From: an uncultured Actinomycetes bacterium
GTDB taxonomy: Bacteria; Actinomycetota; Thermoleophilia; Solirubrobacterales; Solirubrobacteraceae
Reading direction: 5' to 3'
Length of the DNA stretch: 64,000 nt
NCBI GenBank assembly: GCA_963705315.1
Contig: OY970068.1
Coordinates: 70,324-134,323 of the forward strand
How positions within the stretch are numbered: position 1 is the stretch's first letter; each line of letters starts with the position of its first letter. Positions 8,261 to 27,577 of this stretch are shown here, piece after piece. The notes below the pieces were generated by a model. It made no database searches and was not told where the DNA came from. It saw only the letters and a list, made by a program, of their open reading frames with translations. Made by a program: the position numbers and the translations under genes.

Positions 8261-8328
8261 CCGTCTATCAATCCTAGAGGGGTCGCTGTCCTGTACGCCA
8301 CAGTGCGACGACCGTTACCTTTCAGGCC

Positions 8329-8622: not shown

Positions 8623-8636
8623 TGCCGCGGCAGGTT

Positions 8637-8810: not shown

Positions 8811-9112
8811 ACCGCGCGGCCACGCGCGGCCCCCCGCCGCCCCGCCCGCACGAACTCGATCGACCCGATGAACGGCCCGACGCCGCCCAGCACGGCGACC
8901 GCGACGGCCAGCCGCAGCGTGATCACGCGTAGGCGCAGCGCGGCCATGCAGGCCAGCGACATGAGGATCCAGCCGATCCCGTGCGACCAGCCGAGCACGG
9001 TCTTCAGCCCGTCGGGGCCGGTGAAGATCGAGATGAGCAGCCCGCTGTAGATCGCCGAGTGTGTGAACGACGCCCACTTCAGGCGCTGGAACGTCAGCAG
9101 CCGGCGCAGCAT
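8792..9112 (-). CDS. DUF3817-like small membrane protein
   Basis: Internal ATG at 9112 of ORF 8792..9706, giving 106 aa (MLRRLLTFQRLKWASFTHSAIYSGLLISIF...GWSHGIGWILMSLACMAALR). The upstream part of the long ORF is Arg-rich shadow. An ATGA overlap links it to the stop of the upstream NUDIX gene. Confidence 0.65.
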   Translation of the reverse strand: MLRRLLTFQRLKWASFTHSAIYSGLLISIFTGPDGLKTVLGWSHGIGWILMSLACMAALRLRVITLRLAVAVAVLGGVGPFIGSIEFVRAGRRGAARGRAVSEQHR

Positions 9113-12926: not shown

Positions 12927-13709
12927 TCACGACAGCTCGACGTCCAAGCCCTCAGCGATGAAGCACACGAGGCCCGCGATCTTCATCGCCTCGGCGCGCG
13001 GCAGCTCGTAGGTGACCGCGCCGTCCTCGAAGACCTCGCCGCCGGCGTGCACGTGCCAGTACGTCGCCTCGCCCTTGTAGGGGTCGACCGTGCGCGTGCG
13101 GCTCGGCGCGAGGCGCCCGGCCTGCACGACGCCCGGCGCCATGTAGGCGCGCACGGGCTCACCGGTCTCGAACAGCAGCCGCGGGCGCTGCACCGTCGCG
13201 ATGACGTCGTCGCCGACGCTGATGCGCGCCGGGCGCGAGCTCGGGTACACGTCGATGCGGTGGTACGGGTCGCGCAGGTGGCCGACGACCTCCTCGTCCT
13301 CGACGAGCCAGCGGTCGGCCTTGTCGAAGTACATGGCAGCGAATCCCTTCAGCCACGCCGCACGCTCGATCGGCTCCTCGTAGGCCCAGACGGCGTCCTC
13401 GCGCATGTCGTCGCCGGCGCGAACCGACCAGTACGTCGCGTCGCCCTTGAACGGGCAGTGCGTCGTCGTCGTCGAGCGCTCCATGACGGACATGTCGTAG
13501 TCCGCCAGCGGCACGTACGCGACCGGTCGGATTCCGGTCTCGTGCATGAGCTTCGCCTGGGTCGTGTCGAGGACAAGGTGATCGCCGACGTAGGCGCGCA
13601 GCCGGCGCGCATCGGGCTCGAAGAGCATGCGGTGCGGCGGCGAGTCGATCGTGTAGTTCGTCTCGGCCGCGCGGCCGCTGAGCGGGCCGGAGCCCGTCGT
13701 CAGGCTCAT
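12927..13709 (-). CDS. protein with two DUF427 domains
   Basis: 260 aa containing two copies of the pattern ...HCPFKGDATYWSV... / ...DPYKGEATYWHV..., which is characteristic of DUF427. Confidence 0.7.
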   Translation of the reverse strand: MSLTTGSGPLSGRAAETNYTIDSPPHRMLFEPDARRLRAYVGDHLVLDTTQAKLMHETGIRPVAYVPLADYDMSVMERSTTTTHCPFKGDATYWSVRAGDDMREDAVWAYEEPIERAAWLKGFAAMYFDKADRWLVEDEEVVGHLRDPYHRIDVYPSSRPARISVGDDVIATVQRPRLLFETGEPVRAYMAPGVVQAGRLAPSRTRTVDPYKGEATYWHVHAGGEVFEDGAVTYELPRAEAMKIAGLVCFIAEGLDVELS

Positions 13710-15235
13710 CGGTTTGGTGCCTGCACCTTCAGCTTGCGGTGAAACGCGCGAGCGAACAGATCGACCTCGCGCTCGACGGCCCAGCGCTCGACGCTCGCGG
13801 TGCCGTCGGCCTCGAGCTCGAGGCGGATCGTGCCGTTGTCGGATTGCACGTGCGCGGCGTGGACGGTCTGGTCGCGGCTGCGCTCGAGGTCCTCGGCGAG
13901 GCGCAGCAGCGTCGCCAGCCGGTCGAGCCTCTCGGCGTCGCCCTCGGTCGCGAGCGGCTCGAGCTCGCCGAACTCCGGCGTCCCCTTGCGGTGATAGCGC
14001 GCCGCCTGCGCGATGAGCGCGACCTCGCGCGGCTCGAAGCCCGCCAGCCCGGCATTGAGGATGAGGTAGCGCGAGTGCTTGTGGTGGTCGTCGTAGTCGA
14101 CGGACATGCCGATGTCGTGCAGCACGCTGGCGGAGACGAGCAGCTCGCGCTCGATCGGGTCGCCGGGGTGCAGGCCGGCCGCGGCCAGCTGGTCGAAGAG
14201 GTCCGTGGCGAGGCGCGTGACGTGTTCGGTGTGCGCCGGATCGACGTGGTAGCGCGCGGCGAGATTCACGACGCTCGACCGCCGCACGTCGTCGAAGAGT
14301 GGCGGCTCGCCGTCGAGGTAGGAGTCAAAGAAGATGCCCTCCCGCAGGCCGGCCTCCGTGACCTCGATCGCCGCGAACGCACCGATGTCGAGCACCGATC
14401 GCACGACGATCGCGCCGGCCAGGATGAGGTCGGCGCGGGCGTACTTGATGCCCTTCAGGCTGCTGCGCTCGGAGGCGGGGAGGTCCGCAAGCTCGTGGAT
14501 GAGGTCGTCGAGCGCGTCGCGCTCGATCTTGAAGCCCTGCACCCCGACCGACGGCTCACCGGCCTTGGCCTGCGCGGCGGCGGCGAGGTTGCGCATGGTG
14601 CCGCCGATGCCGACGATCCGCCGCCCGGAGCGCGGCAGCCAGGCGGCGGCTTCGTCGAGCGTCTCCTCGACGTGCGCGCGCAGCGCCTTGCGTTCCTTCT
14701 TGGACCGTCCCTCGTCCTCTGACAGGAAGTGCTCGGTCATGCGCACGGCACCGAGCGGCCAGGAGCCGAGCTGGCCGGCGTGCCGACCCTTGACCTCGAC
14801 GAGCTGCAGCGAGCCACCGCCGAGGTCGAATACCGCGCCGTCGGAAAGCGTCGTCGAGTTGACGGCGGCGAGATAGCCGAACCGCGCCTCCTCCTCGCGC
14901 GGGAGGACGCGGACGTCGAGGCCGGTCTCGCTCTTCACGCGGTCAAGGAACACCTGCTGGTTGGACGCGTCGCGGATCGCGCTGGTCGCAACCGCGCGGA
15001 CGTCGGGCGCCTCGATGCCCTGCGCGCGGCAGAAATGCGCAAAGACGTCGATCGCCTGGAGCGCTCGCCTCATCGGCTTGGCGCCGAGCTCGCCGCTCGC
15101 CTCGAGCCCCTGCCCGATCCGCACCGCCTCGTAGATCTCGTCGGTCCGTTTCCACCACCCGTCGGCGTCGGTGAAGACAACAAGCCGGAACGAGTTCGAG
15201 CCGAGGTCGATGACTGCGGTGCGTTGCTCGGCCAC
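13706..15235 (-). CDS. ppx: Ppx/GppA family exopolyphosphatase / guanosine pentaphosphate phosphohydrolase with a C-terminal HD-like region
   Basis: AVIDLGSNSFRLVVF and DLGGGSLQLV are ASKHA phosphate motifs, and LHDIGMSVDYDDHHKHS is HD-like. I chose the start at GTG 15235 because the upstream part of ORF 13706..15397 is Arg-rich. The stop overlaps the DUF427 start (ATGA at 13706..13709). Confidence 0.8.
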   Translation of the reverse strand: MAEQRTAVIDLGSNSFRLVVFTDADGWWKRTDEIYEAVRIGQGLEASGELGAKPMRRALQAIDVFAHFCRAQGIEAPDVRAVATSAIRDASNQQVFLDRVKSETGLDVRVLPREEEARFGYLAAVNSTTLSDGAVFDLGGGSLQLVEVKGRHAGQLGSWPLGAVRMTEHFLSEDEGRSKKERKALRAHVEETLDEAAAWLPRSGRRIVGIGGTMRNLAAAAQAKAGEPSVGVQGFKIERDALDDLIHELADLPASERSSLKGIKYARADLILAGAIVVRSVLDIGAFAAIEVTEAGLREGIFFDSYLDGEPPLFDDVRRSSVVNLAARYHVDPAHTEHVTRLATDLFDQLAAAGLHPGDPIERELLVSASVLHDIGMSVDYDDHHKHSRYLILNAGLAGFEPREVALIAQAARYHRKGTPEFGELEPLATEGDAERLDRLATLLRLAEDLERSRDQTVHAAHVQSDNGTIRLELEADGTASVERWAVEREVDLFARAFHRKLKVQAPNR

Positions 15236-15575
15236 GGGCTTCGAGGATAGATGGCGGTCCGGGCGGAGCAGGAGAGCGAGCGCGCGACCGCGACCGCGAG
15301 GTCGCGCGCCGTGCCGGGCGTCGGCACGGCGTCGTGGCGTGACGGCAACTGCTCGCGATCGGCTCAGCCCGCGCGCCGTCGACGGGTGACTCAGCAAGGG
15401 CCGACCTCGGCTGGCACGACCGACCGGTGATCTCAGAGCTCGACGATGTCGAGCTGCTCGTCGCGGGCCATTGCGACGAGCATCGCGTCCAGCGTGGCGA
15501 TCGAGTCACCCGGGTCGGTGCATGCAAGCAATGCACAGTTCACCAATGACACCGGGCGACGCGTGCGGTGATAAT

Positions 15576-15614
15576 GGGGTGCCGTTAAAAAACGTCGCAC
15601 CAGGTGACAAGTAG
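15576..15614 (+). repeat. left terminal inverted repeat (IRL) of the Tn3-family element
   Basis: It starts with GGGG, as in Tn3-family IRs, and matches IRR at 34/39 positions. It is preceded by ATAAT. Confidence 0.85.
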
Positions 15615-15646
15615 CCGGATCGGACGCGCTGTGTGTGGAGCGCGGT

Positions 15647-17300
15647 TCAGACCGTCTCGTCGTCGCTCTCCGCCGGCGAGGCCTGGCTGAGGGCGAGGCG
15701 CTTGGTCATGTTGAGCGTGATCTCGCCGTAGGGTCGGACGTGCGCCCAGAACAGCGCGGTGAGGCCGCGGTGGTCTTCGGCGGTGAGCACGCCCTGCCAT
15801 TCGGGCTCGGCGAGGATGTCCTGGAGCATCAGCGTGTTCACGTAGACGAGCGCGGCTTGGAGGATGTGCAGGGCGAGCATCCCGAGTTGTTGCTGGTCGC
15901 GCCGGTTGGTTGCGAACTCGCCGCTCTTGCCGAAGAAGATGACGCCGTTGACGCGGTTCCAGGACTCGAAGCGCGTCGTTGAGCGCGGCGAGCTCGGTGC
16001 GCATCTCCTCCCGCAGCCCGGCGGTGAAGACGGCAGGGTCCAGGGGCTTGCGCAGCTTGTCGTAGTGCTCGGCTCGGTGGACCTCGAAGTCGGCCGGGAG
16101 GTCCTCGTCGGGGTTTCGCCATTCGTGCGCGCCGACGACCCAGATCTCCTTGCAGCGCAGCCGCTCGCGCAACGCTTGAATGACGCGCGCCTCGTAGACG
16201 CCACGCACCACGCGGGCCCGGCCACGCGAGTCGGTCTTGGTCAACAGCTCGGTCCAGTCGGCGTTGACGGCGCCGTCCAGGACGACGTGCTCGCCGAGCG
16301 GGTAGTACGTGCCGCCGTGGTGGGCGTAGCGGACGATCAGTCCGAGGGCGTCGATGACGGGCTGATGCGTGGTGTTGTTGGATCTGAACTCGAGCACGCC
16401 GAGCAGCCGGATCAGGCCGCGCCGGTAGTGGTTGGTGTAGGAGGCCTTGAAGACCTTGCGCTTCTGACGCTGATACTCCGAGCCGGTCGCGCGGTACTCC
16501 TTGACCAAGTCGGTCAGCGTCGCCTCGCCGCCGACGACCGGGTAGATCACCTCCCGGACGCTGTCGTCCGGGGTCTTGAGGGAGGCTTCGGCGATCTTGC
16601 GCAGCATCGCGTCCTTGCCGCGAACGCGGCGGAAGTCCTTGACGAACTCCTCGACGACCTTCTGCTCGGCATGTGCGTTGATCCTGTGGATCGTCGAGAT
16701 GAGCAGCTGCGCGAGCGTGTCGGTGACCTCCCGCTCACGCAGGACCAGCAGCGCGCATAACAAGGCGAGCCTGGTCGGCCGGGGATGCTCGCGCAGATGG
16801 CTGGGCGACTCGACCATCGCTCGGGCCCGCCAGCCCGCGACGATCTTCGGCGCGACGCCGGCGAACAGGTCGCCGGGGAGCCCGATCGCTCGGATCGCCT
16901 CGAGCTTTGAGATCTCGACGAGCATCGTGTCCAGGCTCACGTTGCCCGGTGCCGACTTGATTACGGCCAGCACATCCTCACCGTCATCGTGCTCGTCATC
17001 GCTGTTTGCGATCAGCGCCTGGACGCGCTTGGCCGCAGCCACGCCGACACGGTCGGCGACAAGCGCCAGCAGCGCCTGTTCGGCTTGATAGAGCGCCGAC
17101 CTGACGATCTCGGCGAGCCTGTCGGGGGTGGGCGGCTCGATCAGTTCCGCGCGACAGCGCGCGAGCAACTGCTCGTGAACGCGGTCGTGGCCGCGCTCGA
17201 CGCCGGCGACGTGCTCCGTTAACCACGCCGTCAACGGGTCGGCGTCGGTGACACTGCATTCCCTGAAGCCCGCGTAGGCACGGCTCTCCGTGCGGTGGCG
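15647..17300 (-). pseudogene. tnpA: Tn3-family transposase TnpA remnant (5'-truncated, about 1.4-kb internal deletion with frameshift)
   Basis: ORF 15585..17234 carries the DUF4158-distal and central TnpA regions (EISKLEAIRAIGLPGDLF, HLREHPRPTRLALLCALLV). Homology continues upstream to an in-frame TAG at 17301..17303. The extreme C-terminus (NGVIFFGKSGEFATNRRDQQQLGMLALHILQAALVYVNTLM...RPYGEITLN) is in another frame (ORF 15647..16225). About 530 codons remain of an expected 1000, and the DDE catalytic core is missing. Confidence 0.8.
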
Positions 17301-17361
17301 CTAGCGCCTGGGCGGAAAACCCGGGTCTTGCCGCGCTGACGGGTGTGGAACAGATTGCCGA

Positions 17362-17496
17362 TCAGACGCTCTCAGTGTCTCGAAGCGCTGCGACCTGTCG
17401 GTGGCGGCGGGCCGCTTCGATCGCGTCGATGGGTAGAAAGAGTGGGCAGCCGACGTGGTCCTCGCGGTGCAGCAAGTTGTTGGCGATGACGGTCAC
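17362..17496 (-). CDS. 44-codon ORF translationally coupled (GTGA) to the upstream membrane-protein gene; possibly a gene fragment
   Basis: GTG 17494..17496 overlaps TGA 17493..17495. The product is MTVIANNLLHREDHVGCPLFLPIDAIEAARRHRQVAALRDTESV. I recognise no family. Confidence 0.2.
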   Translation of the reverse strand: MTVIANNLLHREDHVGCPLFLPIDAIEAARRHRQVAALRDTESV

Positions 17497-17906
17497 TTCG
17501 CAGCCGCCTTGGCGTCGGGCGTCGGGCGACGGGCGACGGGCGACGAGGTTCCGTAGAAGAGGAACGCGGCACCGGCGGTCGCGGGCACTGCGAACAGGGC
17601 GATGATGACGGCCGCGTTGAGCGCGTGAGCGAGCAGGCCTGATGCGCGTAGCGGCTGCGGCCAGCGGTGCGCTCGCGCCGCGAGGGCGCCGGGGATCACG
17701 GCAGGCATCGCGACAAGCCCGAGTGCGGCGTCTTGTGCGTCGGGGTCGCGCCAGAGCAGCGCGAGCGCGATGAGCGTGATGCCGAGGAGCGCGCGAGCGA
17801 TAACACCGGCTGGTCCGATCGCGCTGGCGCAGGCGGCGGCGAGCTTGGCGGGGTGGCTCACGGTGTCAAACGCTGCGCTGCTGCCGGCGGGTGGTGGCGC
17901 TGGCAC
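17493..17906 (-). CDS. hypothetical membrane protein, divergent from the ArsR-family regulator
   Basis: 137-aa GTG ORF with 3-4 hydrophobic segments (VIARALLGITLIALALLW, LGLVAMPAVIPGALAA, LNAAVIIALFAVPATAGAAFLFY). It shares the palindromic operator region with the regulator. Confidence 0.4.
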   Translation of the reverse strand: MPAPPPAGSSAAFDTVSHPAKLAAACASAIGPAGVIARALLGITLIALALLWRDPDAQDAALGLVAMPAVIPGALAARAHRWPQPLRASGLLAHALNAAVIIALFAVPATAGAAFLFYGTSSPVARRPTPDAKAAAK

Positions 17907-17910
17907 TGGT

Positions 17911-17932
17911 CATGTCAGGTTATACTGACATG
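17911..17932. promoter_or_regulatory. perfect 8-6-8 palindrome: candidate ArsR-type operator overlapping divergent -10 elements
   Basis: CATGTCAG-GTTATA-CTGACATG. The centre reads TATACT on the + strand, ending about 7 nt before GTG 17934. On the - strand it reads TATAAC, about 10 nt before GTG 17906. This suggests two leaderless or near-leaderless transcripts. Confidence 0.45.
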
Positions 17933-17933
17933 A

Positions 17934-18308
17934 GTGTCTGAGAACGCAACGATCGGCGGGCCGTTCTTGCTGCCGCAGCGCCCGACCGAGCCCGATCTGG
18001 TCGCGAAGTACTTCAAGGTGCTGTCTGATCCCGCGCGGGTTCGTGTGCTCGAGCTGCTGCGCGAGCGCGGCGAGCTGTCGGTCGGGCAGCTGACCGAGGC
18101 GCTGGGGCTGGGGCGTACGAATTTGTCCAATCACCTTGGGTGTCTGCGCTGGTGTGGGTTCGTGCTCACGCGTCGCCAGCACCGCACTATCTACTACCGC
18201 GTCGCCGACGCGCGGGTCAGCGAGCTGCTGGCGCTCGGCCGCGCGCTGCTTGAGGACAACGCCGAGCACGTCGCCGCGTGCCGGCGCGTCGATTCGAAGG
18301 GACGCTGA
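17934..18308 (+). CDS. ArsR/SmtB-family metal-sensing repressor (CmtR-like cysteine pattern)
   Basis: The HTH core is LSDPARVRVLELL...LSVGQLTEALGLGRTNLSNHLGCLRWCGFV. It has a C-x3-C pair in the recognition-helix region and a C-terminal Cys (HVAACRR), as in CmtR-type Cd/Pb/Hg sensors. Confidence 0.75.
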   Translation: MSENATIGGPFLLPQRPTEPDLVAKYFKVLSDPARVRVLELLRERGELSVGQLTEALGLGRTNLSNHLGCLRWCGFVLTRRQHRTIYYRVADARVSELLALGRALLEDNAEHVAACRRVDSKGR

Positions 18309-18571
18309 TGGACGACAAGCCAAAGGGGCTACGGGGCACTCCCAGGACGGGGTTCGCCGCGCTGGGTATCGGGACGTTTGCGGTCGTGTGCTGCGCCGGC
18401 TTGCCGTTGCTCGCCGGGGTGCTGGGCGGTGTTGCGCTGGGCAGCGTGCTTGGTGTCGGTGCGGGTTTGCTGGCCGTGATCGTCGTGATCGCCTTGGTCG
18501 TGGTGCGAGCGCGCCGACAGCGCGCGTGCGCGACAGCGCGCGTCACGCCGCGTCGTGGCGGTCAGGCATGA
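18308..18571 (+). CDS. small two-TM membrane protein with a vicinal Cys pair (MerF-like metal uptake protein)
   Basis: ATG 18308 overlaps the regulator's TGA by 1 nt. The 87-aa product has FAVVCCAGLPLLAGVLGGVALG in TM1, comparable to the LVALCCFTPVLV motif of MerF. A second TM follows, with one more Cys after it. Confidence 0.5.
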   Translation: MDDKPKGLRGTPRTGFAALGIGTFAVVCCAGLPLLAGVLGGVALGSVLGVGAGLLAVIVVIALVVVRARRQRACATARVTPRRGGQA

Positions 18572-19917
18572 GCGCGGCGCGCTACGGCGCGGTCGTGATC
18601 GGCGGCGGCCCGGCCGGAGAGGTCGCCGTCTCACGCCTGAACGCGCAGGGCCTCAGGGTCGCGCTGGTCGAGCGTGAGCTGGTCGGCGGCGAGTGCGCCT
18701 ATTGGGCGTGCATCCCGTCAAAGGTGCTCATGCGCCCGCCCGAGGCGCGCGGGGAAGCCACGCGTGCGGCCGGCGTCGCGACGCCCGCGATCGACTGGCC
18801 GCAGGTCGCGGCGTACCGCGACTACATGATCCGCAACCTCGACGACGCCGCGCAGGTCAAGGCCTACCGCGACGACGGCATCGACGTCTTCAAAGGCGAC
18901 GCCCGGATCGACGGGCCCGGCCACGTCGCCGTCGACGGGCAGGTGCTTGTGACCGAGCGGATCGTCGTCGCAACCGGCAGTGATGCGCGGATCCCGCCGA
19001 TCGACGGTCTCGTGCAGGCGGGCTACTGGACCAACCGTGAGGCAACGACGCTCACCGACATCCCGGACAGCGTCGTGATCCTTGGCGGCGGCCCCTTCGG
19101 CGTCGAGCTCGGCCAGTTCATGCGCCGCTTCGGAACACGCGTGACGATCGTCGATCACGGTGATCGGCTCATCTCGCGTGACGACCCGGTCGTCGGCGAG
19201 CTGATCGCCACAGCCCTGCGCGCCGAAGGCATCGAACTGCGGCTCGGCGCGAAGGCCGTCAGCGTGACGCTCACAGATGGCGTGCGTGTCGTGCTGCTCG
19301 ACGACGGCGAGCAGGTCAGCGGACGCGAGCTGCTGGTCGCGACCGGCCGTGCGCCGCGGGTGCACGACATCGGCCTTGAGAGCATCGCCATCACGCCCGA
19401 TCCAGCGGGCCTACAGGTCGACGAGCGCTGCCGTGCCGCGGAGGGCGTGTGGGCGATCGGCGACGTCACCGGCGTGCTGGCGTTCACGCACGTCGGGATG
19501 TACCAGGGGCGCATCACCGCGGCCGACATCGCCGGTGAAACGGTCCGCGCGGACTACACCGCGATCCCACGCGTCGTCTTCACGGACCCCGAGATCGCCG
19601 CCGTCGGCCTGACCGAACACCAGGCCCGCGAGCAGGGCATCCCGGTCGCGACCTCGCGTGTCGCGCTGGCCGACACGATCGCGCGACCGTGGACCTATCA
19701 GCAGGACCCCGGCGGCGAGCTCGGGCTGATCGGCGACCGTGATCGCCAGGTGCTGATCGGCGCGTGGGCGGTCGCTCCGCTGGCCGGCGAATGGATCCAT
19801 TACGCAGCGCTGGCGATCAAGACCCAGACGCCGCTGTCGGTGCTGCGCGACACCGTCGCGCAGTTCCCCACCTTCACCGAGGCCTACCTCAAAGCAGCTG
19901 AGCGCCTTGACGCCTGA
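18568..19917 (+). CDS. class I pyridine nucleotide-disulfide oxidoreductase: MerA-like paralog lacking the C-terminal Cys pair
   Basis: Internal ATG 18568 in an ATGA overlap with the upstream stop. Motifs are VVIGGGPAGE, the redox-active GGECAYWACIPSK, and an NAD motif ILGGGPFGVELG. It ends ...FTEAYLKAAERLDA with no CC. Confidence 0.75.
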   Translation: MSAARYGAVVIGGGPAGEVAVSRLNAQGLRVALVERELVGGECAYWACIPSKVLMRPPEARGEATRAAGVATPAIDWPQVAAYRDYMIRNLDDAAQVKAYRDDGIDVFKGDARIDGPGHVAVDGQVLVTERIVVATGSDARIPPIDGLVQAGYWTNREATTLTDIPDSVVILGGGPFGVELGQFMRRFGTRVTIVDHGDRLISRDDPVVGELIATALRAEGIELRLGAKAVSVTLTDGVRVVLLDDGEQVSGRELLVATGRAPRVHDIGLESIAITPDPAGLQVDERCRAAEGVWAIGDVTGVLAFTHVGMYQGRITAADIAGETVRADYTAIPRVVFTDPEIAAVGLTEHQAREQGIPVATSRVALADTIARPWTYQQDPGGELGLIGDRDRQVLIGAWAVAPLAGEWIHYAALAIKTQTPLSVLRDTVAQFPTFTEAYLKAAERLDA

Positions 19918-21316
19918 CCGCGACCACGCTGATCACACGTACGACCTGGCGATCGTCGGTTCGGGTGGCGGCGCGTTCGCCGCGGCGATCGCCGCGCGCC
20001 GACGCGACCTGCGTGTCGTCATGATCGAGCACGCCACGGTCGGCGGGACGTGCGTGAACGTCGGCTGCATCCCGTCCAAGGCGCTGCTGGCCGCCGCCGA
20101 AACCCGCCACCGCGCCGGCCACGACCGCTTTGCCGGCATCAGCACGCACGCCGGACCGGTCGACTTCGCGGCGCTGATCGCCGGCAAGGACGAGATCGTC
20201 AACGGCTTGCGCCAGGAGAAGTACCTCGACATCGCCGCCGAGTACGACATCGAGCTCGTCCACGGCCACGCGCGCTTCATCAATGGTCCCGCGCTGGATA
20301 TCGACGGGCGCCGCATCGACGCCGCGCACTACCTGATCGCGACCGGCAGCCAACCGCACATCCCCGACATTCCCGGGCTGGCCGACAGCGGCTACCTGAC
20401 GTCGACCTCGGCGATGGAGCTCGAGCAGTTGCCCGCGTCGATGATCGTCATCGGCGGCGGGTACGTCGCGATGGAGCAAGCCCAGCTGTTCTCCCACCTC
20501 GGCACCCGCGTGACGATGCTCGTGCGCTCAAGATTGGCGCGCGGCGAGGAACCCGAGCTCGCCCAGAGCATCCGCGACGCGTTCACCGAGCAGGGCATCG
20601 AGATCCATGAGGGCATCCAGGCGACCGCCGTGCGCCGCGACGGCGACGGCGACGTCACGCTCACAGCGGGCGACCGCGAGTTTCGAGCCGCGCGAATGCT
20701 GCTCGCCACGGGCCGGACGCCGAGCACATCCGGCCTCGGCCTGCAGGGCATCGGCGTGCAGACAGGGGCTCGTGGCGAGGTCGTCGTCGACGAGCACACG
20801 AGCACCACCAATCCGCGGGTATGGGCGGCCGGCGACGTCACCGGTCATCCGCAGTTCGTGTACGTCGCCGCCAAGCACGGCAGCATGGTCGTCGACAACG
20901 CCTTTGACCGGGCCGGGCGACGAATCGACTACCAGGCATTGCCGCGGATCACCTTCACCACCCCGACACTCGCCTCAGCAGGCCTCACCGAAGCCCAAGC
21001 CATCGATCACGGCCTGCGCTGCGAGTCGCGCGTGCTCGCGCTCGAACACGTCCCACGCGCGATCGTCAGCCGCAACACCAGCGGCATGGTCAAGCTCGTC
21101 GCCGAGCGCGACAGCGGCCGAATTCTCGGGGTGCACCTACTCGCCGACGGCGCAGGCGACGCCATCCTCGCCGGCGTCTACGCGATCCAGGCCGCATTGA
21201 CGGTCGCGCAGCTCGCGTCAAGCTGGAACCCGTACCTGACGATCGGCGAGGCGATCCACCTCACGGCGCAGTCCTTCACCCTCGACCCCAGCAAACTGTC
21301 GTGCTGCGCGGCGTGA
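19907..21316 (+). CDS. merA: mercuric reductase core (no N-terminal HMA/NmerA domain)
   Basis: Motifs are YDLAIVGSGGGAF, the redox-active GGTCVNVGCIPSK, and the C-terminal vicinal cysteines KLSCCAA* that are diagnostic of MerA. The TTG start overlaps the preceding gene by 11 nt. Confidence 0.8.
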   Translation: MTPDRDHADHTYDLAIVGSGGGAFAAAIAARRRDLRVVMIEHATVGGTCVNVGCIPSKALLAAAETRHRAGHDRFAGISTHAGPVDFAALIAGKDEIVNGLRQEKYLDIAAEYDIELVHGHARFINGPALDIDGRRIDAAHYLIATGSQPHIPDIPGLADSGYLTSTSAMELEQLPASMIVIGGGYVAMEQAQLFSHLGTRVTMLVRSRLARGEEPELAQSIRDAFTEQGIEIHEGIQATAVRRDGDGDVTLTAGDREFRAARMLLATGRTPSTSGLGLQGIGVQTGARGEVVVDEHTSTTNPRVWAAGDVTGHPQFVYVAAKHGSMVVDNAFDRAGRRIDYQALPRITFTTPTLASAGLTEAQAIDHGLRCESRVLALEHVPRAIVSRNTSGMVKLVAERDSGRILGVHLLADGAGDAILAGVYAIQAALTVAQLASSWNPYLTIGEAIHLTAQSFTLDPSKLSCCAA

Positions 21317-21496
21317 GCACGCGAAACCGGGTGTCGCACAGACCACGCGCGGTCACGGCGACCGCGACGCGCTCGACGGTCATTGCGTTCACGGTCGTGA
21401 GCTGGGTGCGCGGGCGAGCATTATCGCCATCAGTGCTGGGGCTGCCGGGCCAGATCGAACGCCCGTCGCTGCTATGACCGAGAAAGCAGGAGCAAC

Positions 21497-22153
21497 ATGA
21501 AACGCGAGCAGAGCGCCGAGACACCACGGAGACGGCAGCCGTTGAGCCGGGTGAGCGGCACGGGGGTAGACGAACCGGTCGGTGGGCGATCAGCGCCGCC
21601 GTGCTGGCGGCGCTTGTCACGCTTGTCGTCGTGGCAACACAGCGCGCACCCGCCCGGGGGGTCGCCCCTCCTCAAACAGGACGTTGCGCAGCAGAACTCG
21701 ACGAGCGCAACCGCAGATGACGGGCAGGCGTCCAGCAAGACCGTGCGGAGCTTCTCGCTCGCGGACGTTGATGGCCGCCAGGTCATGCGACCGTCGGGGC
21801 GCAGGCCCGGCGTGCTGGTGTTCACCGCGAGCAATTGCTCGCCGTGCATCGTTCAGGCCCCCGGCCTACTCGCCGAGATGCGCAAGTTCGGCTCACGAGC
21901 GGAGATCCTGACGGTGAGCATTGACCCCGGCGACTCCAGTTCAGCGCTGCGCGATGCGTTCAAGCCCGCGATCGGCAGCGCTCGGAACTATCCGCTGGCC
22001 GTCGACCGAAGCGGTCAGCTGGCGCCGGCCTTCGGCGTGACCGCGACAGGCACCGAGATCGTCTATGACCGCGCGGGCCGCGAGGTGTAGCGCGGCGTAT
22101 CAAGCCCGGTGAGCGAGATTGGCGCGGCGTTGCGCAAGGCTGGCGCCGCGTGA
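21497..22153 (+). pseudogene. TlpA/ResA-like membrane-anchored thioredoxin-fold protein, apparently disrupted (in-frame TAG at 22088; membrane anchor in another frame)
   Basis: AGGAG lies 5 nt upstream of ATG 21497. The thioredoxin motif is VLVFTASNCSPCIVQAP. TAG 22088..22090 is followed in frame by RGVSSPVSEIGAALRKAGAA and TGA 22151..22153, which overlaps the GTG of the ccdA fragment. A signal-anchor (RRTGRWAISAAVLAALVTLVVVATQ) is encoded in the +2 frame between the G5 run at 21562..21566 and the G6 run at 21656..21661. Confidence 0.55.
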
Positions 22154-22245
22154 GCGCGGCGGTGTCGTTTGCCTTCGCGGCGGGACTGCTGGCCACCGTC
22201 AACCCGTGTGGCTTCACGATGCTGCCGTCCTTTCTGACGTTCTAG
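22150..22245 (+). pseudogene. CcdA/DsbD-family cytochrome c biogenesis protein: N-terminal 31-codon fragment
   Basis: VSAAVSFAFAAGLLATVNPCGFTMLPSFLTF* carries the conserved NPC(G/A)F.MLP motif of CcdA TM1. The reading frame ends at TAG 22243..22245 and the similarity stops there. Confidence 0.6.
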
Positions 22246-22352
22246 GGAACGAGGCACCAACCGACAAGTAGGTCGGGATCGGGGGTCTACGGAGAGTTCG
22301 TGCGGACAACCGGGTCAGGCCGTGCGGCGCCCAGCCTGAGTCATGTGGTCGA

Positions 22353-22865
22353 TCAGCGCAGGTACGTGTTGCGTGGTCGCGCGAGCAGCAGCCAGACATT
22401 CAGCAGCGCAAACGCCGCGACGAAGTTCGCGCCGCACACCATGCACGTCTCCACGGTGACACCTTCCGCAAGCAGCGTCCCGAGGTCCTTCAGCAGCGTG
22501 ATTGCGACGCCGACGACGAAGGACAGCACGAGCGTGCGGCGCAGATGCTCACGCGCGAAGCCCCAGGCCGCGACGACGGGTGCCTTGGGCGGAGAAACCG
22601 GGTCGTTGTCGGCTGCGACGATGTTCAGGCGGGGGGACGTGCTGTGGGCGTCGAGGTGCGCGATGACGCGCTCGGCAAGCCCGTCGGGCGCCGCGCTGCT
22701 GATCGAGCGCAACTGCCGTCCGAGTGCGGTCAGCTCTTCGAGCGACCCGCGACACGCCACGCATTCGCGGAGGTGCTCGCGCACGCGACGGGTTTCGTCG
22801 TCTGGCAGCGCGCTATCGCGGTAGTCGCACAGTCGCGTGGACGCGAAGTGATGCTCGGCGCTCAC
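22353..22865 (-). CDS. anti-sigma factor: N-terminal zf-HC2 with a C-terminal two-TM domain
   Basis: The H-x3-C-x2-C motif is HLRECVACRG. The gene overlaps the ECF sigma stop by 4 nt. The C-terminal hydrophobic segments are TLVLSFVVGVAITLL and GANFVAAFALLNVWLLLA. Confidence 0.7.
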   Translation of the reverse strand: MSAEHHFASTRLCDYRDSALPDDETRRVREHLRECVACRGSLEELTALGRQLRSISSAAPDGLAERVIAHLDAHSTSPRLNIVAADNDPVSPPKAPVVAAWGFAREHLRRTLVLSFVVGVAITLLKDLGTLLAEGVTVETCMVCGANFVAAFALLNVWLLLARPRNTYLR

Positions 22866-23491
22866 AGCGAACCCCGCTGCCCCGCATCGTCGGCGAGTGC
22901 TGTGCGAAGCGTCCCGCGCGCGCGATGCAGACGGCTCTTGAACGCCGCCTCGCTCAGGCCGAGAGCCGATGCCGCTTGCGCGGTCGAGAGTCCCTCGACA
23001 TCGCGCAGCACGAGCGCTGCGCGCCGATCGACCGGTAGCGTCGAGATCGCGCGATCGAGCACGCGTCGTAGCTCGCTCTGCTCGGCACGGTCCGCTGGAC
23101 GTATCGAGCGGTCGGGTGACTCGTGCTCGCGGTGATCATCCAGCGGCAGAAGCCTCGCGTCAGCGCGGCGGTGCTGGCGTTCGGCGCGGCGCCTGGCCTC
23201 GTTGACGCCGATCCGGTACAGCCAGGTGAAGAATTGCGCGTCACCGCGAAACGCGGGCAGTCCACGCCACGCGCGCAGGAACGCGTCCTGTGTGACCTCC
23301 TCCGCTTCGTGCGCATCCGCGCACAATCGCACGACAACGGCGTACAGACCGGCGGCATGACGGCGCACGAGTTCGTCAAAGGCCGCCCGGTCGCCCCCTC
23401 GCGCGAGCGCCACGAGCGCGCGATCGTCCTCGATCAAGCGTGGCGCGACCATCCCGCCACGATAACCCGCTGTCGTGCGCTCGGACGCCAT
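22862..23491 (-). CDS. ECF-type RNA polymerase sigma-70 family factor
   Basis: Region 2 is AFDELVRRHAAGLYAVVVRLC...AEEVTQDAFLRAWRGLPAFRG...FFTWLYRIGVNEA. Region 4 is RAALVLRDVEGLSTAQAASALGLSEAAFKSRLHRAR. Confidence 0.85.
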   Translation of the reverse strand: MASERTTAGYRGGMVAPRLIEDDRALVALARGGDRAAFDELVRRHAAGLYAVVVRLCADAHEAEEVTQDAFLRAWRGLPAFRGDAQFFTWLYRIGVNEARRRAERQHRRADARLLPLDDHREHESPDRSIRPADRAEQSELRRVLDRAISTLPVDRRAALVLRDVEGLSTAQAASALGLSEAAFKSRLHRARGTLRTALADDAGQRGSL

Positions 23492-23888
23492 AGACCCTCA
23501 GACCCGGACGCCACCCCAACGATTCGTCGCGCTGCACCGATCGACGGGCGCCTGCGGTCGATGATGTTCCCGCGGAGTGGTCAGCGGTCGGCGAGCAGCG
23601 CGCAGATCACGTTTCGCGAGTCCGACGATGCCGGTCAGCACGGCATATCTGCGCGCGCCGGTGAGCGTGGCGTCGACGACGAGCGTCATGGTGCTGGCGT
23701 CGACGGGGTCTGTCTCGATGTCGAGTCGAGGCGCTGCGCGGCGATCGCGGGGGTCGCGCCAGGACCAGCGCCCCGCATCTCTGCTCTGAGGCTAGACAGA
23801 CCCCTTGCAGGGCAGCCGCGAGCGGAATCTTGAACCGATCTGCTGGTGCAGGGGTCCAACCCCGCGAACGGATCCTCTCTGAAAGGAC

Positions 23889-24401
23889 ATGATGAATCTC
23901 GCTCACGATCTGGACCGGCGCATCGCCTACGGCGTGGTCGGCGGGACCTTCGCAGGGCTGCTGTTCTTGCTGGCGAACATGTGGTACGCCGACGGGCAGG
24001 GCCTTCCTGCGGTCGCCCCGCTGTACGACATCTCAACGATCTTCTACTTCTCCGACAAGCCCGACCCGCAGCCGATCAATGCTGCTGTCGGCCTCGTCAT
24101 GCACCTGACGCTGGCAGCTGCGTTCGGGGCGATGCTCGCCGTGCTCGCTCCGCTGGCCCGCGGCGCAGCGCGCCTCGCCGGGCTCGCCGCCGCGTTCGGC
24201 CTTGTGCTGTACATCGTGAACTTCCAAATTCTCGGACGCCTTGTGTTCGAGTGGTTCCAGGTGGGACCCAATCAAACCTTCGAGGTCTTCGCGCACGTCG
24301 GGTACGGCCTGCTCGTCATTCCGTTCGTCATGCGCTTCGCGGCCGCGAGCAGCCGATCACCCGCCACCGCGCCTAGCGCGGCACGTCCGGCCGCCCGGTG
24401 A
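23889..24401 (+). CDS. hypothetical 4-TM membrane protein
   Basis: 170-aa ATG ORF with four hydrophobic segments. I recognise no family. Confidence 0.5.
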   Translation: MMNLAHDLDRRIAYGVVGGTFAGLLFLLANMWYADGQGLPAVAPLYDISTIFYFSDKPDPQPINAAVGLVMHLTLAAAFGAMLAVLAPLARGAARLAGLAAAFGLVLYIVNFQILGRLVFEWFQVGPNQTFEVFAHVGYGLLVIPFVMRFAAASSRSPATAPSAARPAAR

Positions 24402-24783
24402 CGTAGACCGAGATCACGGCGCACCCGGCGCCGCGATACCGTCGCAAGCCGCGCGACGGCGCGCGGCGCGGCGCGGCGCGGCGCGGACCGCCGTGCCTGC
24501 CGCGATCAGCTCGTCACGGCTCGACGGCGGCCAGTACGTCCGGCGCGGGACTACGAGCGTCACACGTAGGCCACGAGCCTGGGTAGCTGTCCCCACGTGC
24601 AAAGTAGAAGCCGAGCCGTTCGCTGAAGCGCCCATACTCACCGGCCTATACCCCGCCCCGCAACGCTTGCGCCCCGTAGGCTCCCCCGCGCTGACTGTGG
24701 CGCGATCGGGCGGCCGCGGGCCGCCTACTGGCGGCGGGAGCCTCTGCCGAGCAACTCAACGCGGAGCCAGCCGGCCCCCGCCA

Positions 24784-24914
24784 TGTCCGGGGACGATCGT
24801 TCACGGACACCCTTGGAGCAGAAATCGGGCAGCCCGCCATTCCGGGCTCCGCGTTTGTAACGAAACCCGTGTACTCGGCAACGTAACGCGCTCCCCCGTT
24901 CGTCTACACTCCAA
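24784..24914 (+). promoter_or_regulatory. candidate res (resolution) site upstream of tnpR
   Basis: TGTCCG-gggacgATcgttca-CGGACA (24784..24809) is a 26-bp dyad with a central AT, resembling a res subsite I. It lies about 105 bp upstream of tnpR, which leaves room for subsites II and III. Confidence 0.3.
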
Positions 24915-25496
24915 GTGATGCGGATCGGCTACGGGCGGGTATCCACCCGCGATCAGAATCCAGACAGCCAGCGCGACGCCCTCGCCGCCGCCAACTGCGA
25001 TGAGATCTTCGTCGACAACGCCAGCGGCAAGCTCGCCAGCCGTCCAGAACTCGACAAGGCGCTACTCGTCGCCAAGCGCGCCGGCGACAAGCTCGTCATC
25101 ACCAAGCTCGACCGCCTCGGCCGCTCCCTCGAGCACCTCATCGCCCTATCTCGCGACCTCCAGGCGCGTGGGGTAGACCTCGTCGTGCTCGACCAGGGCG
25201 TCGACACCTCAACCGCCGCCGGGCGCATGTTCTTTCAGACCCTCGGCGCGATCGCCGAGTTCGAGCACGCGCTGATGTCCGAACGCACCCGCGACGGCCT
25301 CGACGCCGCCCGCGCGCGCGGACGCACCGGTGGGCAGAAACCCAAGCTCACCGCCCGCCAGGCGAAGATCGCTCAGGACATGTACGACGAGCTCGGCGAC
25401 GACGGACGGCGGGCACACACCGTGCAGCACATCGCCAACGAGTTCGGCGTCACCCGCCCAACGATCTACCGCCACCTCCAACGGCGCATGCGCTGA
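24915..25496 (+). CDS. tnpR: serine recombinase / Tn3-family resolvase
   Basis: MRIGYGRVSTRDQNPDSQ contains the catalytic Ser motif. Other motifs are KLDRLGRS and a C-terminal HTH (IANEFGVTRPTIYRHL). The start is GTG 24915 or ATG 24918. Confidence 0.9.
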   Translation: MMRIGYGRVSTRDQNPDSQRDALAAANCDEIFVDNASGKLASRPELDKALLVAKRAGDKLVITKLDRLGRSLEHLIALSRDLQARGVDLVVLDQGVDTSTAAGRMFFQTLGAIAEFEHALMSERTRDGLDAARARGRTGGQKPKLTARQAKIAQDMYDELGDDGRRAHTVQHIANEFGVTRPTIYRHLQRRMR

Positions 25497-25512
25497 CCGC
25501 GGCCAGCGCGCC

Positions 25513-25551
25513 CTACGTGTCCTCTGGTGCCACGTTTCTTAACGGCACCCC
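25513..25551 (-). repeat. right terminal inverted repeat (IRR) of the Tn3-family element
   Basis: See IRL. It is followed by ATAAT at 25552..25556. Confidence 0.85.
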
Positions 25552-25600
25552 ATAATGGCGCGCCCGCAGCTCCCCCACGCGCCACGCGCGCGCGCCGTCG

Positions 25601-25632
25601 AGTGAGACGAGGTGAGAGTGAGACGAGGTGAG
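25601..25632. repeat. perfect 16-bp tandem duplication
   Basis: agtgagacgaggtgag occurs twice, at 25601..25616 and 25617..25632, in the unannotated flank right of the transposon. Confidence 0.8.
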
Positions 25633-25769
25633 CGACGGGCCCGTCGACGAGCGGTGCCAGCAACTCCTGCGCGAAGATGCCGAACGTCGCGGCGCGGCCC
25701 TCGGGCGCCACCAGCCGGAGGTTGCTGTCGACACGGATGCCTGAACTGAAAAACCGGCCCAATTACAGG

Positions 25770-26147
25770 CTATTCGTGTTTCTCGATGAGCTCGATCCGA
25801 TACCCGTCGGGGTCGCGGACGAAGCACAGCAGCGAGCCGCCCTCGCGGACGCGGTAGGGCGGCTTCTCGGGCTCGATGCCCTGACCGGCAAGCTCGGCGA
25901 GCGCGGCGTCCATGTCGGCGACGCTGATCGCGATGTGGTTGTAGCCCGTGCCGAGCTCGTACTCCGAGACGCCGTGGTTGTAGGTCAGCTCGAGGCGGGG
26001 GCCGTCTTCGGGGAAGCCCATGAAGACGTTGATCGCCTCGTCGCGGATGTTCATCCGGCGCATCTCCTGCAGTCCGAGCGCCCCGTAGAAGGCGACGGAG
26101 CGGTCGATGTCACCGATCCGGTAACACGTATGTAGAAGCTCTGGCAT
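25770..26147 (-). CDS. gloA: lactoylglutathione lyase (glyoxalase I, VOC family)
   Basis: Internal ATG 26147, giving 125 aa: MPELLHTCYRIGDIDRSVAFY...LELTYNHG...GYNHIAISV...DPDGYRIELIE, a typical GloA pattern. Confidence 0.8.
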   Translation of the reverse strand: MPELLHTCYRIGDIDRSVAFYGALGLQEMRRMNIRDEAINVFMGFPEDGPRLELTYNHGVSEYELGTGYNHIAISVADMDAALAELAGQGIEPEKPPYRVREGGSLLCFVRDPDGYRIELIEKHE

Positions 26148-26170
26148 GACGCCAGATACTAGGAAACGCG

Positions 26171-26662
26171 CTAGCCCTTGCCCTGCTTGGCTTCGAACAT
26201 GAACAGGACCATCCCGGCGTCGCGCTCGCTCTCCTGCGAGTTCTTCGCCAGACGCTCGGCCGAGGACCGCGCGATGCGGTCGGCCTGCCTGAGCAGGTCG
26301 TCGCACGCTCGCGAGAGCTGCTGCCAGCCCTTCGTGTCCAGGCGCAGCCGGGCGCGCGTCGCCAGCGATTGGGCATCCTCGAAGCTGCCGATGGCCGCCA
26401 CCGAGCAGACGCTCGGGTCAAGCGGCGACACCTCCGCGCCGGGGCCGCCGCCGGGCGACGTCCCGTTTGACGGCGCCTCGTCCGGCGCGGTCACCGCGCG
26501 GTAGTGGTGGGCCACCGCGCCGCGCACGCGCGTCTCGCCCGTGAGCTCGATGAGCCCGAGCGCGTGCAGCGTTCGCACGTGGTAAGCGACGGTCCCGACG
26601 CTCGCGCCCAGATTGCTCGCGAGCTGGGTCGGCGTCGCTTCGCGCGCCTGCAGTGTGCTCAA
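26171..26662 (-). CDS. ArsR-like winged-HTH transcriptional regulator; the N-terminus probably extends upstream without a canonical start
   Basis: TPTQLASNLGASVGTVAYHVRTLHALGLIEL. The frame stays open upstream of TTG 26662 and encodes DPRYAKAVRHPLRARILSTL, the usual start of the HTH domain. No ATG, GTG or TTG is available there. Confidence 0.6.
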   Translation of the reverse strand: MSTLQAREATPTQLASNLGASVGTVAYHVRTLHALGLIELTGETRVRGAVAHHYRAVTAPDEAPSNGTSPGGGPGAEVSPLDPSVCSVAAIGSFEDAQSLATRARLRLDTKGWQQLSRACDDLLRQADRIARSSAERLAKNSQESERDAGMVLFMFEAKQGKG

Positions 26663-26857
26663 TATGCGGGCGCGCAGAGGGTGCCGTACCGCTTTTGCGT
26701 AACGTGGATCTTCAGTGTTCAGAACGGCCTCGCGTTCCCCGTAGGCCAGACAAAATTTAGGAATCGCACATTATCCGCCTTCGCGGACTCGCACAATGCT
26801 CAAACGTCCAGTGTTCAGCGAGCCCGGTCCGCGACGCTGCCGCAGTACCCTGACGGC

Positions 26858-27577
26858 ATGCTGATCGAGCGCGCCATGTCCGACGGTTTTCTTACGAACA
26901 CGTACCTCGTCGCGGCGCAGCCCGGCGGCCCGGGTTTCCTGATCGACGCCGGCGGGCCTATGGGGCCGCTGTTCGACGCCGCCGAGCGCGAGTCGATCGA
27001 TGTCACGCATCTGCTGCTGACCCACCACCACCACGACCACGTCCTGGCGCTCGACGAGGTCACGCAACGCTTCCCCGGCATCGTCGTCCTCGCGCACCCC
27101 GACGAGCCGGTCGAGGCCGAGCCGTTTGCCCCGCTGCAGATCGGCGGCCTCGACGTCGACGCCCTCCACACGCCGGGCCACACGGCGGGGATGCTGAACT
27201 TCACCGTCCCCGGCCATGTCTTCACGGGCGACACGCTCTTCAAGCACTCGATCGGCGGTGTCCGCGCGCCCGGCAGCACGGGCTACGCCGACATCAAGGC
27301 CTCGATCATGGACACGCTGATGGGCCTCGATCACGCGACCGAGGCCCACCCCGGGCACACCGACCCGACGACGATCGGCGACGAGTGGGAGCACAACGCG
27401 TTCATCCGCGTATGGCGCGGGCTGGATGACGAGGGCGACGAGCGGGTCACGGTCTGGGGCGAGCCCGCGACGCTCGTCGTGTGGGGCGAGGACTACGACG
27501 GGGGCCACAAGGCGTGGGTGCGCTGGGCGGATGGGCGCGATGACATCGTCCCCGGCTCCCAGGTAGAGCGCGGGTAG
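26858..27577 (+). CDS. MBL-fold metallo-hydrolase (glyoxalase II-like)
   Basis: Internal ATG 26858. Motifs are LLTHHHHDHV (H-x-H-x-D-H) and HTPGHTAG. It is divergent from the regulator and 0.7 kb from gloA. Confidence 0.75.
   Translation: MLIERAMSDGFLTNTYLVAAQPGGPGFLIDAGGPMGPLFDAAERESIDVTHLLLTHHHHDHVLALDEVTQRFPGIVVLAHPDEPVEAEPFAPLQIGGLDVDALHTPGHTAGMLNFTVPGHVFTGDTLFKHSIGGVRAPGSTGYADIKASIMDTLMGLDHATEAHPGHTDPTTIGDEWEHNAFIRVWRGLDDEGDERVTVWGEPATLVVWGEDYDGGHKAWVRWADGRDDIVPGSQVERG

Follow-up and report, generated by a model that had tools for sequence, protein, structure and literature searches.

How a 9,976-bp segment came to lie between ppx (exopolyphosphatase) and gloA (glyoxalase I-like), two genes that are often neighbors in Solirubrobacterales, and what it brought with it, are the questions raised by this locus of an uncultured member of the Solirubrobacteraceae. 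The segment occupies positions 15576-25551 of the window, by which we mean the whole 64,000-nucleotide stretch of contig OY970068.1 analyzed here. Our analysis indicates that it is very probably a transposon of the Tn3 family (class II, replicative), with a mercury-resistance module as its cargo, and that it is now non-autonomous. The features are listed in Table 1. The loci used for comparison are labeled as follows: L001-L080, ppx loci; L081, plasmid pFRP1-1 of Pseudonocardia; L083, L084, and L087, contigs of metagenome-assembled genomes (MAGs); L085, a JGI metagenome contig with a mer block; L086, a further mer locus; and L088-L167, 80 metagenome loci.

Both ends of the segment are formed by 39-bp inverted repeats (IRs). 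IR-L, at the tnpA end, and the reverse complement of IR-R, at the tnpR end, match at 34 of 39 positions, and the pair ranks as the longest and best inverted repeat in 14000-27000. Both repeats begin with the GGGG-initiated 13-mer GGGGTGCCGTTAA, of which the window contains two exact copies, only at the element ends, against 0.02 expected from shuffled sequence. The pentamer ATAAT lies immediately outside each end. The left junction (15571-15614) reads GGTGATAAT followed by GGGGTGCCGTTAAAAAACGTCGCACCAGGTGACAAGTAG, and the right junction reads, from 25513, CTACGTGTCCTCTGGTGCCACGTTTCTTAACGGCACCCC followed by ATAATGG, with ATAAT ending at 25556. IRs of 38 bp, 5-bp repeats, and AT-rich targets are published traits of the Tn3 family (PMC4133298, PMC7157771), and imperfect IRs of similar length are known in it, as in Tn4662a (41 bp, 5 differences; PMC4133298).

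The decisive evidence comes from two related Solirubrobacteraceae genomes, L017 and L002, which carry the uninterrupted target. An empty site reconstructed by joining window 15100-15575 to 25557-25900 aligned with no break at the junction: it matched L017 6894-7152 at 89.5% over 275 bp, and it also matched L002 9619-10136 across the junction. Both genomes read ...GGGCGCGCC ATTAT CACCGCACGCG..., in which ATTAT corresponds to ATAAT on the window + strand and occurs once; between the empty and the filled site, no other sequence was lost or gained. Since L017 and L002 align across the junction with one pentamer, the whole unit entered in a single insertion that duplicated 5 bp. The segment thus has the GGGG-initiated IRs of about 38 bp and the 5-bp duplication of the Tn3 family. 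A preliminary description of this DNA, made from the letters alone, had proposed these ends (34/39 identical, with the same start), the ATAAT outside each of them, and a single Tn3-family transposition event; all of this was borne out, and the empty-site comparison that it suggested came out positive.

The backbone within the IRs was assigned as the preliminary description had it: a tnpA remnant reads toward IR-L and a serine resolvase gene toward IR-R, as TnpA homology and PF00239 confirmed. As an intact reference we used P0242, the 988-aa TnpA of L087, which has the domains DUF4158 (PF13700) and DDE_Tnp_Tn3 (PF01526). The window remnants correspond to residues 86-529 (90.5% identity) and 882-987 (96%) of this protein, whereas residues 1-85 and 530-881 are missing. 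The 3′ fragment matches only positions 304-388 of the 389 positions of PF01526 (73.9 bits), and positions 1-303 are absent. Comparison with L084 locates two deletions. The first, at 15969/15970, took 1,058 bp of the DDE core (L084 10759-11816) and also shifted the frame; the metagenome locus L148 (643-1698) keeps approximately 1,056 bp of what is missing here. The second, of approximately 615 bp (L084 8812-9426), took codons 1-85 and the sequence just upstream. A 549-aa open reading frame (ORF) at 15585-17234 gave no Pfam match; it aligns to residues 87-554 of a Tn3-type transposase from a Pseudonocardia plasmid, and the last ~92 codons of tnpA follow in another frame. A PDB sequence search with the tnpA remnant gave no match, and a protein search returned many relatives, 85-94% identical, with DUF4158 and DDE_Tnp_Tn3, some of them labeled Solirubrobacteraceae Tn3 family transposase. 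Hence, a Tn3-type transposase of about 1000 aa with these two domains is recognized in the window by homology only, and the want of an intact copy bears on autonomy, not on family origin. Because the DDE catalytic core and codons 1-85 are deleted, the element is non-autonomous: the window copy is predicted to be unable to move by itself, yet it keeps both IRs, a putative res site, and an intact tnpR. The earlier term “remnant” understates this, as the whole DDE core is lost.

The element may also have arrived already defective, as an IR-bounded cargo unit moved in trans by the transposase of an intact relative. While tnpA has two large deletions, both IRs, the putative res, and tnpR are preserved; moreover, an intact relative is known in L087, transposase-less Tn3 derivatives have been mobilized in trans experimentally (PMC4133298), and L086 contains a 256-bp mini element of this family with an IR at each end. 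In contrast, no intact member of the IR family was found inside the 64-kb window, no second copy with the same tnpA deletions is known, and decay in situ fits the data equally, the flanking vapBC genes themselves being in decay. We regard decay after arrival as the likelier course, and movement of a defective unit in trans as possible though rather unlikely.

TnpR, in contrast to TnpA, is intact; it matches the gamma-delta and Tn3 resolvase structures over its full length and supplies the recombinase gene with which Tn3-family elements resolve cointegrates. Exact look-ups of three start variants of TnpR gave no match in an index that does not contain the window genome. The 26-bp palindrome TGTCCGGGGACG-AT-CGTTCACGGACA (24784-24809), with a central AT, is the likely candidate for crossover site I of res, and conserved accessory blocks (~24857-24910) adjoin the tnpR start. 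Palindrome and blocks are kept in L084 and L087 and are kept partly, or in weaker form, in pFRP1-1. In the res sites of Tn3 and Tn501 the crossover site is distal and the accessory sites are proximal to tnpR (PMC7157771), and the window layout matches this order. The homology of the window and L084 to the cargo-less L087 ends exactly at the outer edge of the palindrome (L087 3051; window 24784). A cargo swap exactly at the site I crossover dinucleotide was considered and rejected, since a further ~30-50 bp past site I are common to the window and L084.

Taken together, we propose that a Tn3-type DDE transposase recognized both 39-bp IRs, cut the target strands 5 bp apart at ATAAT in a vapC pseudogene, and joined the IRs to the staggered ends. 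This transposase may have been encoded by the element itself, before its tnpA decayed, or supplied in trans by a related element. By analogy with Tn3 (PMC7157771), transposition would have been of the copy-in type, replication through the element would have produced a cointegrate, and TnpR would have resolved it at res upstream of tnpR, leaving one copy with the 5-bp duplication that is seen at the site. Two deletions have left tnpA without codons 1-85 and without 1,058 bp of the DDE domain.

The same IR family is found in other actinobacterial elements, and its consensus is GGGGTGCCGTTAAGGAACGTgGCACCAggtGaCAAGTAG. IR-L matches the tnpA-end IR of L083 and of L084 at 37 of 39 positions, L082 contains one end of the same family, and in the other loci with this IR it always abuts a Tn3-type tnpA or tnpR. 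The elements in L083 and L084 have the tnpR-res-cargo-tnpA layout of the window, with sulfur-related cargo (ArsR, MMPL, rhodanese, MBL-rhodanese, TauE, and OsmC), while the pFRP1-1 element carries an ERCC4-domain gene. On the tnpA side, the backbone common to the window and L084 reaches 115 bp upstream of tnpA. Because backbone homology bounds both sides, the cargo of the window and that of L083/L084 sit in one and the same bay, from res site I to tnpA, with different contents. Among the elements of the IR family compared, only the window copy has mer genes, and only it has this pair of tnpA deletions.

The 20-nt IR terminus occurs in at least 120 JGI soil-metagenome stretches. At 80 metagenomic ends (L088-L167), the 5 bp outside the IR are 60.5% AT, compared with 33.6% for the contigs overall, which agrees with the AT-rich targets known from the Tn3 family (PMC4133298). 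The target profile at these ends is GC-rich at -10 to -6 and roughly W-W-S-W-N at -5 to -1 (A/T 75% at -4, G/C 72% at -3, and T 62% at -2), some ends possibly being one insertion resampled, such as TACTC, which was seen 6 times. The intact TnpA (P0242) aligns over its full length to thousands of plasmid Tn3-family transposases, at no more than ~66% identity. The nearest of these in PLSDB (58-66% aa) are from Streptomyces, Rhodococcus, Pseudonocardia, and Nocardia and are annotated only generically, and a megablast of the whole element against PLSDB plasmids found no close relative, only merA (72%) and tnpA (70%). A high-GC actinobacterial donor, as had been supposed, agrees with these plasmid relatives, with the nearest backbones, which are in MAG and metagenome contigs (94-98% nt identity for the tnpA side), and with the TnpA relatives labeled Solirubrobacteraceae.

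The backbone of the window element is a mosaic. Its tnpA/IR-L side (15576-17429) is 94-98% identical to L084/L083 and its res/tnpR/IR-R side (24734-25551) 82-85% identical to L083/L084/L087, which suggests an earlier recombination between two lineages near res. The same difference between the two sides relative to L084, and the existence elsewhere of the mer block without a transposon backbone, could also be expected of a composite built in place by two independent events, for example from two IR-bearing fragments or by a one-ended insertion followed by cargo acquisition. We consider such an origin very improbable, because identical 5-bp repeats at both ends and an empty site with exactly one copy are the signature of single-unit insertion, and the mosaicism is better explained by recombination before insertion, the sister elements L083 and L084 sharing the architecture. 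A genomic island integrated by a serine recombinase, or an IR similarity due to chance or to a larger genome-wide repeat, as the preliminary description had allowed, might be read from the serine recombinase gene at one end and from a gloA-ppx spacer whose length varies between 21 bp and 8.2 kb in 49 Solirubrobacterales loci, but is effectively refuted by the IR distribution and the empty site: small serine resolvases do not make 5-bp duplications beside 39-bp GGGG-initiated inverted repeats, and the IR is confined to the two ends in the window, always adjoins Tn3-type genes elsewhere, and is absent from all 80 related ppx loci.

The cargo extends over ~17430-24733 (7.3 kb), between res site I and tnpA. 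A metal module, an ECF (extracytoplasmic function) sigma pair, and membrane proteins had been described between tnpA and tnpR; all are present, and the metal module is a mercury module, as identified by merA. MerA has the active site CVNVGC and a C-terminal SCCAA and is without an N-terminal HMA domain; it thus has the CxxxxC active site and the C-terminal Cys pair of the pyridine-nucleotide disulfide oxidoreductase by which mer operons are recognized, and it scores above the TIGR02053 equivalog cutoff. In contrast, its paralogue encoded next to it scores 314 bits with TIGR02053, below the cutoff of 454. The window merA is 72% identical in nucleotides to Streptomyces merA, and its product is 87-92% identical to metagenomic MerA. 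From its family, MerA is expected to reduce Hg(II) to volatile Hg(0). The ArsR-type protein, 95% identical to its L085 homologue, is probably the mer repressor. The 87-aa Cys-Cys protein gave only a faint MerE match (E = 0.22) and has a counterpart beside merA in L085 (84% identity); it is a candidate for the dedicated Hg(II) transporter of mer operons (MerT, MerP, MerC, MerF, or MerE) and probably imports Hg(II). Accessory redox proteins and an ECF sigma/anti-sigma pair are encoded as well; the anti-sigma factor matches NCBIfam anti-sigma families below their curated cutoffs only.

The block from arsR to merA (17910-21322, 3.4 kb) is 91.4% identical to L085, where the transposon backbone is absent, and a shorter version is present in L086. 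Since the block also occurs free of the backbone in L085, it is a captured module. All three mer loci have an ECF sigma/zf-HC2 pair no more than a few kb from merA (window 22353-23491; L085 15392-16197; L086 11475-12307). A conserved mer-sigma module is nevertheless not supported, as the L085 and L086 sigma factors are only 46% identical to that of the window and their anti-sigma factors are soluble proteins of 77-79 aa, compared with a membrane-anchored protein of 170 aa in the window. Upstream of the arsR-merA block, L085 (5745-7886) and L086 (7175-9319) share a conserved 186-aa membrane protein and a third, divergently transcribed pyridine-nucleotide disulfide oxidoreductase, both absent from the window element; this third oxidoreductase is 42-43% identical to the merA-adjacent MerA-like oxidoreductase (window 18568-19917; L085 8662-10011).

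Several points weigh against our interpretation. Transposition, resolution, and mercury resistance of the element are deduced from its genes and ends. The decay of tnpA may have followed insertion, or a defective copy may have been mobilized in trans. The res half-sites were deduced from conservation among only three or four elements, and of the three subsites expected in a Tn3-family res (about 100-150 bp, next to tnpR) only site I was placed. The 87-aa membrane protein has no significant Pfam or NCBIfam match. In plasmids, in the 80 related genomic loci, and in the 80 metagenome loci, the last of which gave backbone matches only, no second copy of the exact mer-carrying element was found; therefore, the mobility of this particular mer unit rests on a single insertion.

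The core of the element resembles Tn3 of the Tn3 subgroup (V00613). In both, the IRs are ~38 bp long and begin with GGGG, 5 bp of an AT-rich target are duplicated, the gene for a large DDE TnpA reads toward one of the IRs, and a serine resolvase gene is transcribed divergently from it. Upstream of the resolvase gene lies res, putative in the window, with the accessory sites proximal and the crossover site distal to tnpR (PMC7157771); the cargo-less L087 element has the tnpR-res-tnpA core of Tn3. Unlike Tn3, the window element has its cargo between res site I and tnpA and not downstream of tnpR, its IRs are 39 bp long and end in AAGTAG/ACGTAG, its tnpA carries deletions, and the TnpA of its intact relative is less than 60% identical to the enterobacterial plasmid copies. 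In its passenger it resembles Tn501 and Tn21, which are Tn3-family elements with mer genes including merA and with a serine TnpR and res (PMC7157771). However, Tn501/Tn21 have tnpR and tnpA side by side in the same orientation, with mer on the far side of res, whereas in the window the cargo separates tnpA from res. Moreover, Tn501/Tn21 have a MerR-family regulator, MerT/MerP, and a MerA with an N-terminal HMA domain, whereas the window has an ArsR-family regulator, a core-type MerA, and an unclassified Cys-Cys transporter candidate. The classical mer transposons thus differ from the window element in cargo position, regulator type, and host lineage.

The window element also shares properties with the Tn3-derived miniature elements called TIMEs, TIME-RES, and TIME-COMP (Szuplewska et al. 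2014, PMC4133298), which are IR-bounded, are without a working transposase, in some cases keep a resolvase and res, duplicate 5 or 6 bp of an AT-rich target, and can be mobilized in trans. Unlike these, it keeps 1.65 kb of tnpA wreckage and a 7-kb cargo. Its closest counterparts are the unnamed Actinomycetota elements of pFRP1-1, L083, L084, and L087, with which it shares the IR consensus, 5-bp flanking duplications, the tnpR/tnpA position at opposite ends, and the site I palindrome, and from which it differs in its mer cargo and tnpA deletion pair. The element is apparently unnamed; it appears to work like Tn3 in its core and like Tn501/Tn21 in its passenger function. No study in the literature library searched links Tn3 elements with Solirubrobacter, and the searches gave nothing on Tn3 in the Solirubrobacteraceae.

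The flanks are ppx and gloA, as had been described, but the spacer between them is not simply housekeeping DNA. A scan for Ppx in species-representative genomes gave 80 loci, all in Solirubrobacterales/Thermoleophilia and mostly Solirubrobacteraceae MAGs; as the best match is 86% identical, the genome of the host itself is not among them. Because the Ppx matches cluster there, the host is placed in the Solirubrobacteraceae. In 49 of the 80 loci, gloA is found upstream of ppx in the same orientation, and the spacer between the two genes seems to be a recurrent target for insertion or a variable spot. The intact orthologue of the target is seen in L017, where an ORF at 6724-7125 encodes a 133-aa PIN domain protein (PF01850, 39.6 bits; cutoff 23.6) preceded by an overlapping 87-aa ORF; a PIN toxin gene with a small gene in the antitoxin position constitutes a vapBC-like pair. 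Judged from this orthologue, the insertion target is the 3′ half of a decaying vapC (PIN toxin) pseudogene, the pentamer falling in L017 on the vapC codons CAT TAT (His-Tyr). The window vapC is without ~53 N-terminal codons, and the 3′ part of vapB is also gone; this comparison indicates that vapBC was already decaying when the transposon inserted. A conserved RNA or a 39-aa small ORF across the junction was rejected, as Rfam gave nothing and the L017 ORFs identify the block as the vapC 3′ end.

Within the vapC remnant, 25600-25631 is a perfect 2 × 16-bp tandem duplication, GAGTGAGACGAGGTGA, absent from L017 and L002. The vapBC-like module (possibly an AbrB-type antitoxin with the PIN toxin) is found between gloA and ppx in 3 of ~80 related genomes, intact in L017 (6464-7125) and truncated in L002 (9619-9880) and in the window. 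At the DNA level, the copies of the window and L017 are 89.5% identical, whereas the Ppx proteins of the same pair are only 76% identical, which suggests that the module itself was recently mobile or is unusually conserved.

Table 1. Features of the window, stretches of its backbone aligned to L084, and elements of the same inverted-repeat family in other loci (positions refer to the window unless a locus is named).
Feature	Position	Strand	Evidence or remark
ppx (exopolyphosphatase), flank, outside element	13706..15237	-	Ppx-GppA 189.8 bits; orthologues in 80 Solirubrobacterales loci
vapC pseudogene 3′ end, distal target piece	15436..15575	-	L017 VapC residues 83-133; tblastn 90% identity
Left target-site duplication copy, ATAAT	15571..15575	.	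Single copy in empty sites L017, L002
IR-L, 39-bp terminal inverted repeat, tnpA end	15576..15614	+	Sequence GGGGTGCCGTTAAAAAACGTCGCACCAGGTGACAAGTAG
tnpA 3′ fragment, last ~106 codons and stop, out of frame with upstream fragment	15647..15969	-	PF01526, P0242, L084 matches
tnpA middle fragment, residues 86-529 of intact TnpA	15970..17302	-	Comparison with L084, P0242
Second deletion scar (~615 bp), then 115 bp of backbone upstream of tnpA	17303..17429	-	Comparison with L084
Hypothetical membrane protein, 137 aa	17493..17906	-	No family match
ArsR/SmtB-family metalloregulator	17934..18308	+	NF033788 84.7 bits (cutoff 55); Pfam HTH_5
87-aa two-helix membrane protein, vicinal Cys-Cys in helix 1	18308..18571	+	MerF/MerE-like by motif only
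MerA-like FAD/NAD(P)H disulfide oxidoreductase paralogue	18568..19917	+	Pyr_redox_2/dim; CAYWAC active site; no C-terminal Cys pair
merA, mercury(II) reductase, core type	19907..21316	+	TIGR02053 552.7 bits (cutoff 454.45)
Thioredoxin-fold thiol:disulfide oxidoreductase, CSPC motif, start codon uncertain	21497..22090	+	AhpC-TSA 39.2 bits; weak ResA-like match
Membrane-anchored zf-HC2 anti-sigma factor, H-x3-C-x2-C	22353..22865	-	PF13490 30 bits (cutoff 22.2)
ECF sigma factor	22862..23491	-	Sigma70_r2, Sigma70_r4_2; TIGR02937 99 bits
Hypothetical membrane protein, 170 aa	23889..24401	+	No family match
Putative res site	24784..24914	+	Conserved palindrome and blocks within the 131 bp upstream of tnpR
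tnpR, small serine recombinase (resolvase), 192 aa, intact	24918..25496	+	PF00239 142.6 bits; Ser10 present
IR-R, 39-bp terminal inverted repeat, tnpR end	25513..25551	-	Reverse complement GGGGTGCCGTTAAGAAACGTGGCACCAGAGGACACGTAG
Right target-site duplication copy, ATAAT	25552..25556	.	Single copy in empty sites L017, L002
vapC middle (~residues 54-87) fused by older deletion to vapB remnant, proximal target piece	25557..25720	-	L017 comparison
gloA (glyoxalase I-like), flank, outside element	25770..26147	-	Glyoxalase 69 bits; upstream of ppx in 49 related loci
Backbone aligned to L084 12210-11817	15576-15969		97.7% nt identity
Backbone aligned to L084 10758-9427	15970-17302		93.8% nt identity
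Backbone aligned to L084 8811-8697	17315-17429		89.6% nt identity
L084 element	L084 461-12210		11.75 kb; flanking repeat GAACA
L083 element	L083 3173-12226		Flanking repeat CGTA(G)
Element of Pseudonocardia sp. EC080625-04 plasmid pFRP1-1 (NZ_CP010990.1 ~252.8-259.0 kb)	L081 1548-7698		6.15 kb; flanking repeat TAGGT
L087 element, cargo-less, intact TnpA	L087 2291-6248		3.96 kb; flanking repeat AACATC

The related loci show further rearrangements. In L084 (461-2779), the IR is separated from the complete tnpR (2180-2779) by a thiC-like gene (665-2032) and a duplicated tnpR 3′ end (~500-666), an odd arrangement that reflects internal rearrangement or insertion. The mini element of L086 (4574-4829) lies between two diverged IR copies and is TIME-like, with no clean flanking duplication (GTGAA/AAATG). 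In L087 (1993-8848), the cargo-less element adjoins an 870-aa Tn3-type transposase gene on the opposite strand (6236-8848) and a DDE_Tnp_Tn3 fragment (1993-2289); Tn3 elements are clustered or nested at this locus.

This study provides a clean natural example of a Tn3-family insertion in which both ends, the target duplication, and the orthologous empty site are all readable; it comes from the Solirubrobacteraceae, soil bacteria from which hardly any mobile elements have been described. The Tn3 paradigm is unchanged, and the window copy is a fossil. It indicates that mercury resistance in this family can be carried by a Tn3-type backbone, one that is common in soil metagenomes, and the 39-bp IR consensus, the candidate res site I, and the target-site profile provide a resource for annotation. 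A further idea, which we consider doubtful and offer as speculation, is that these elements represent an undescribed actinobacterial/Thermoleophilia Tn3 lineage whose cargo bay between res site I and tnpA has been repeatedly reloaded with self-contained detoxification modules (mercury, sulfur/persulfide), the mer version having its own ECF sigma/anti-sigma switch that could respond directly to Hg(II) or thiol stress. If this is true, the element would be a portable sensor-regulator-effector circuit acting via an ECF sigma/zinc-finger anti-sigma switch.

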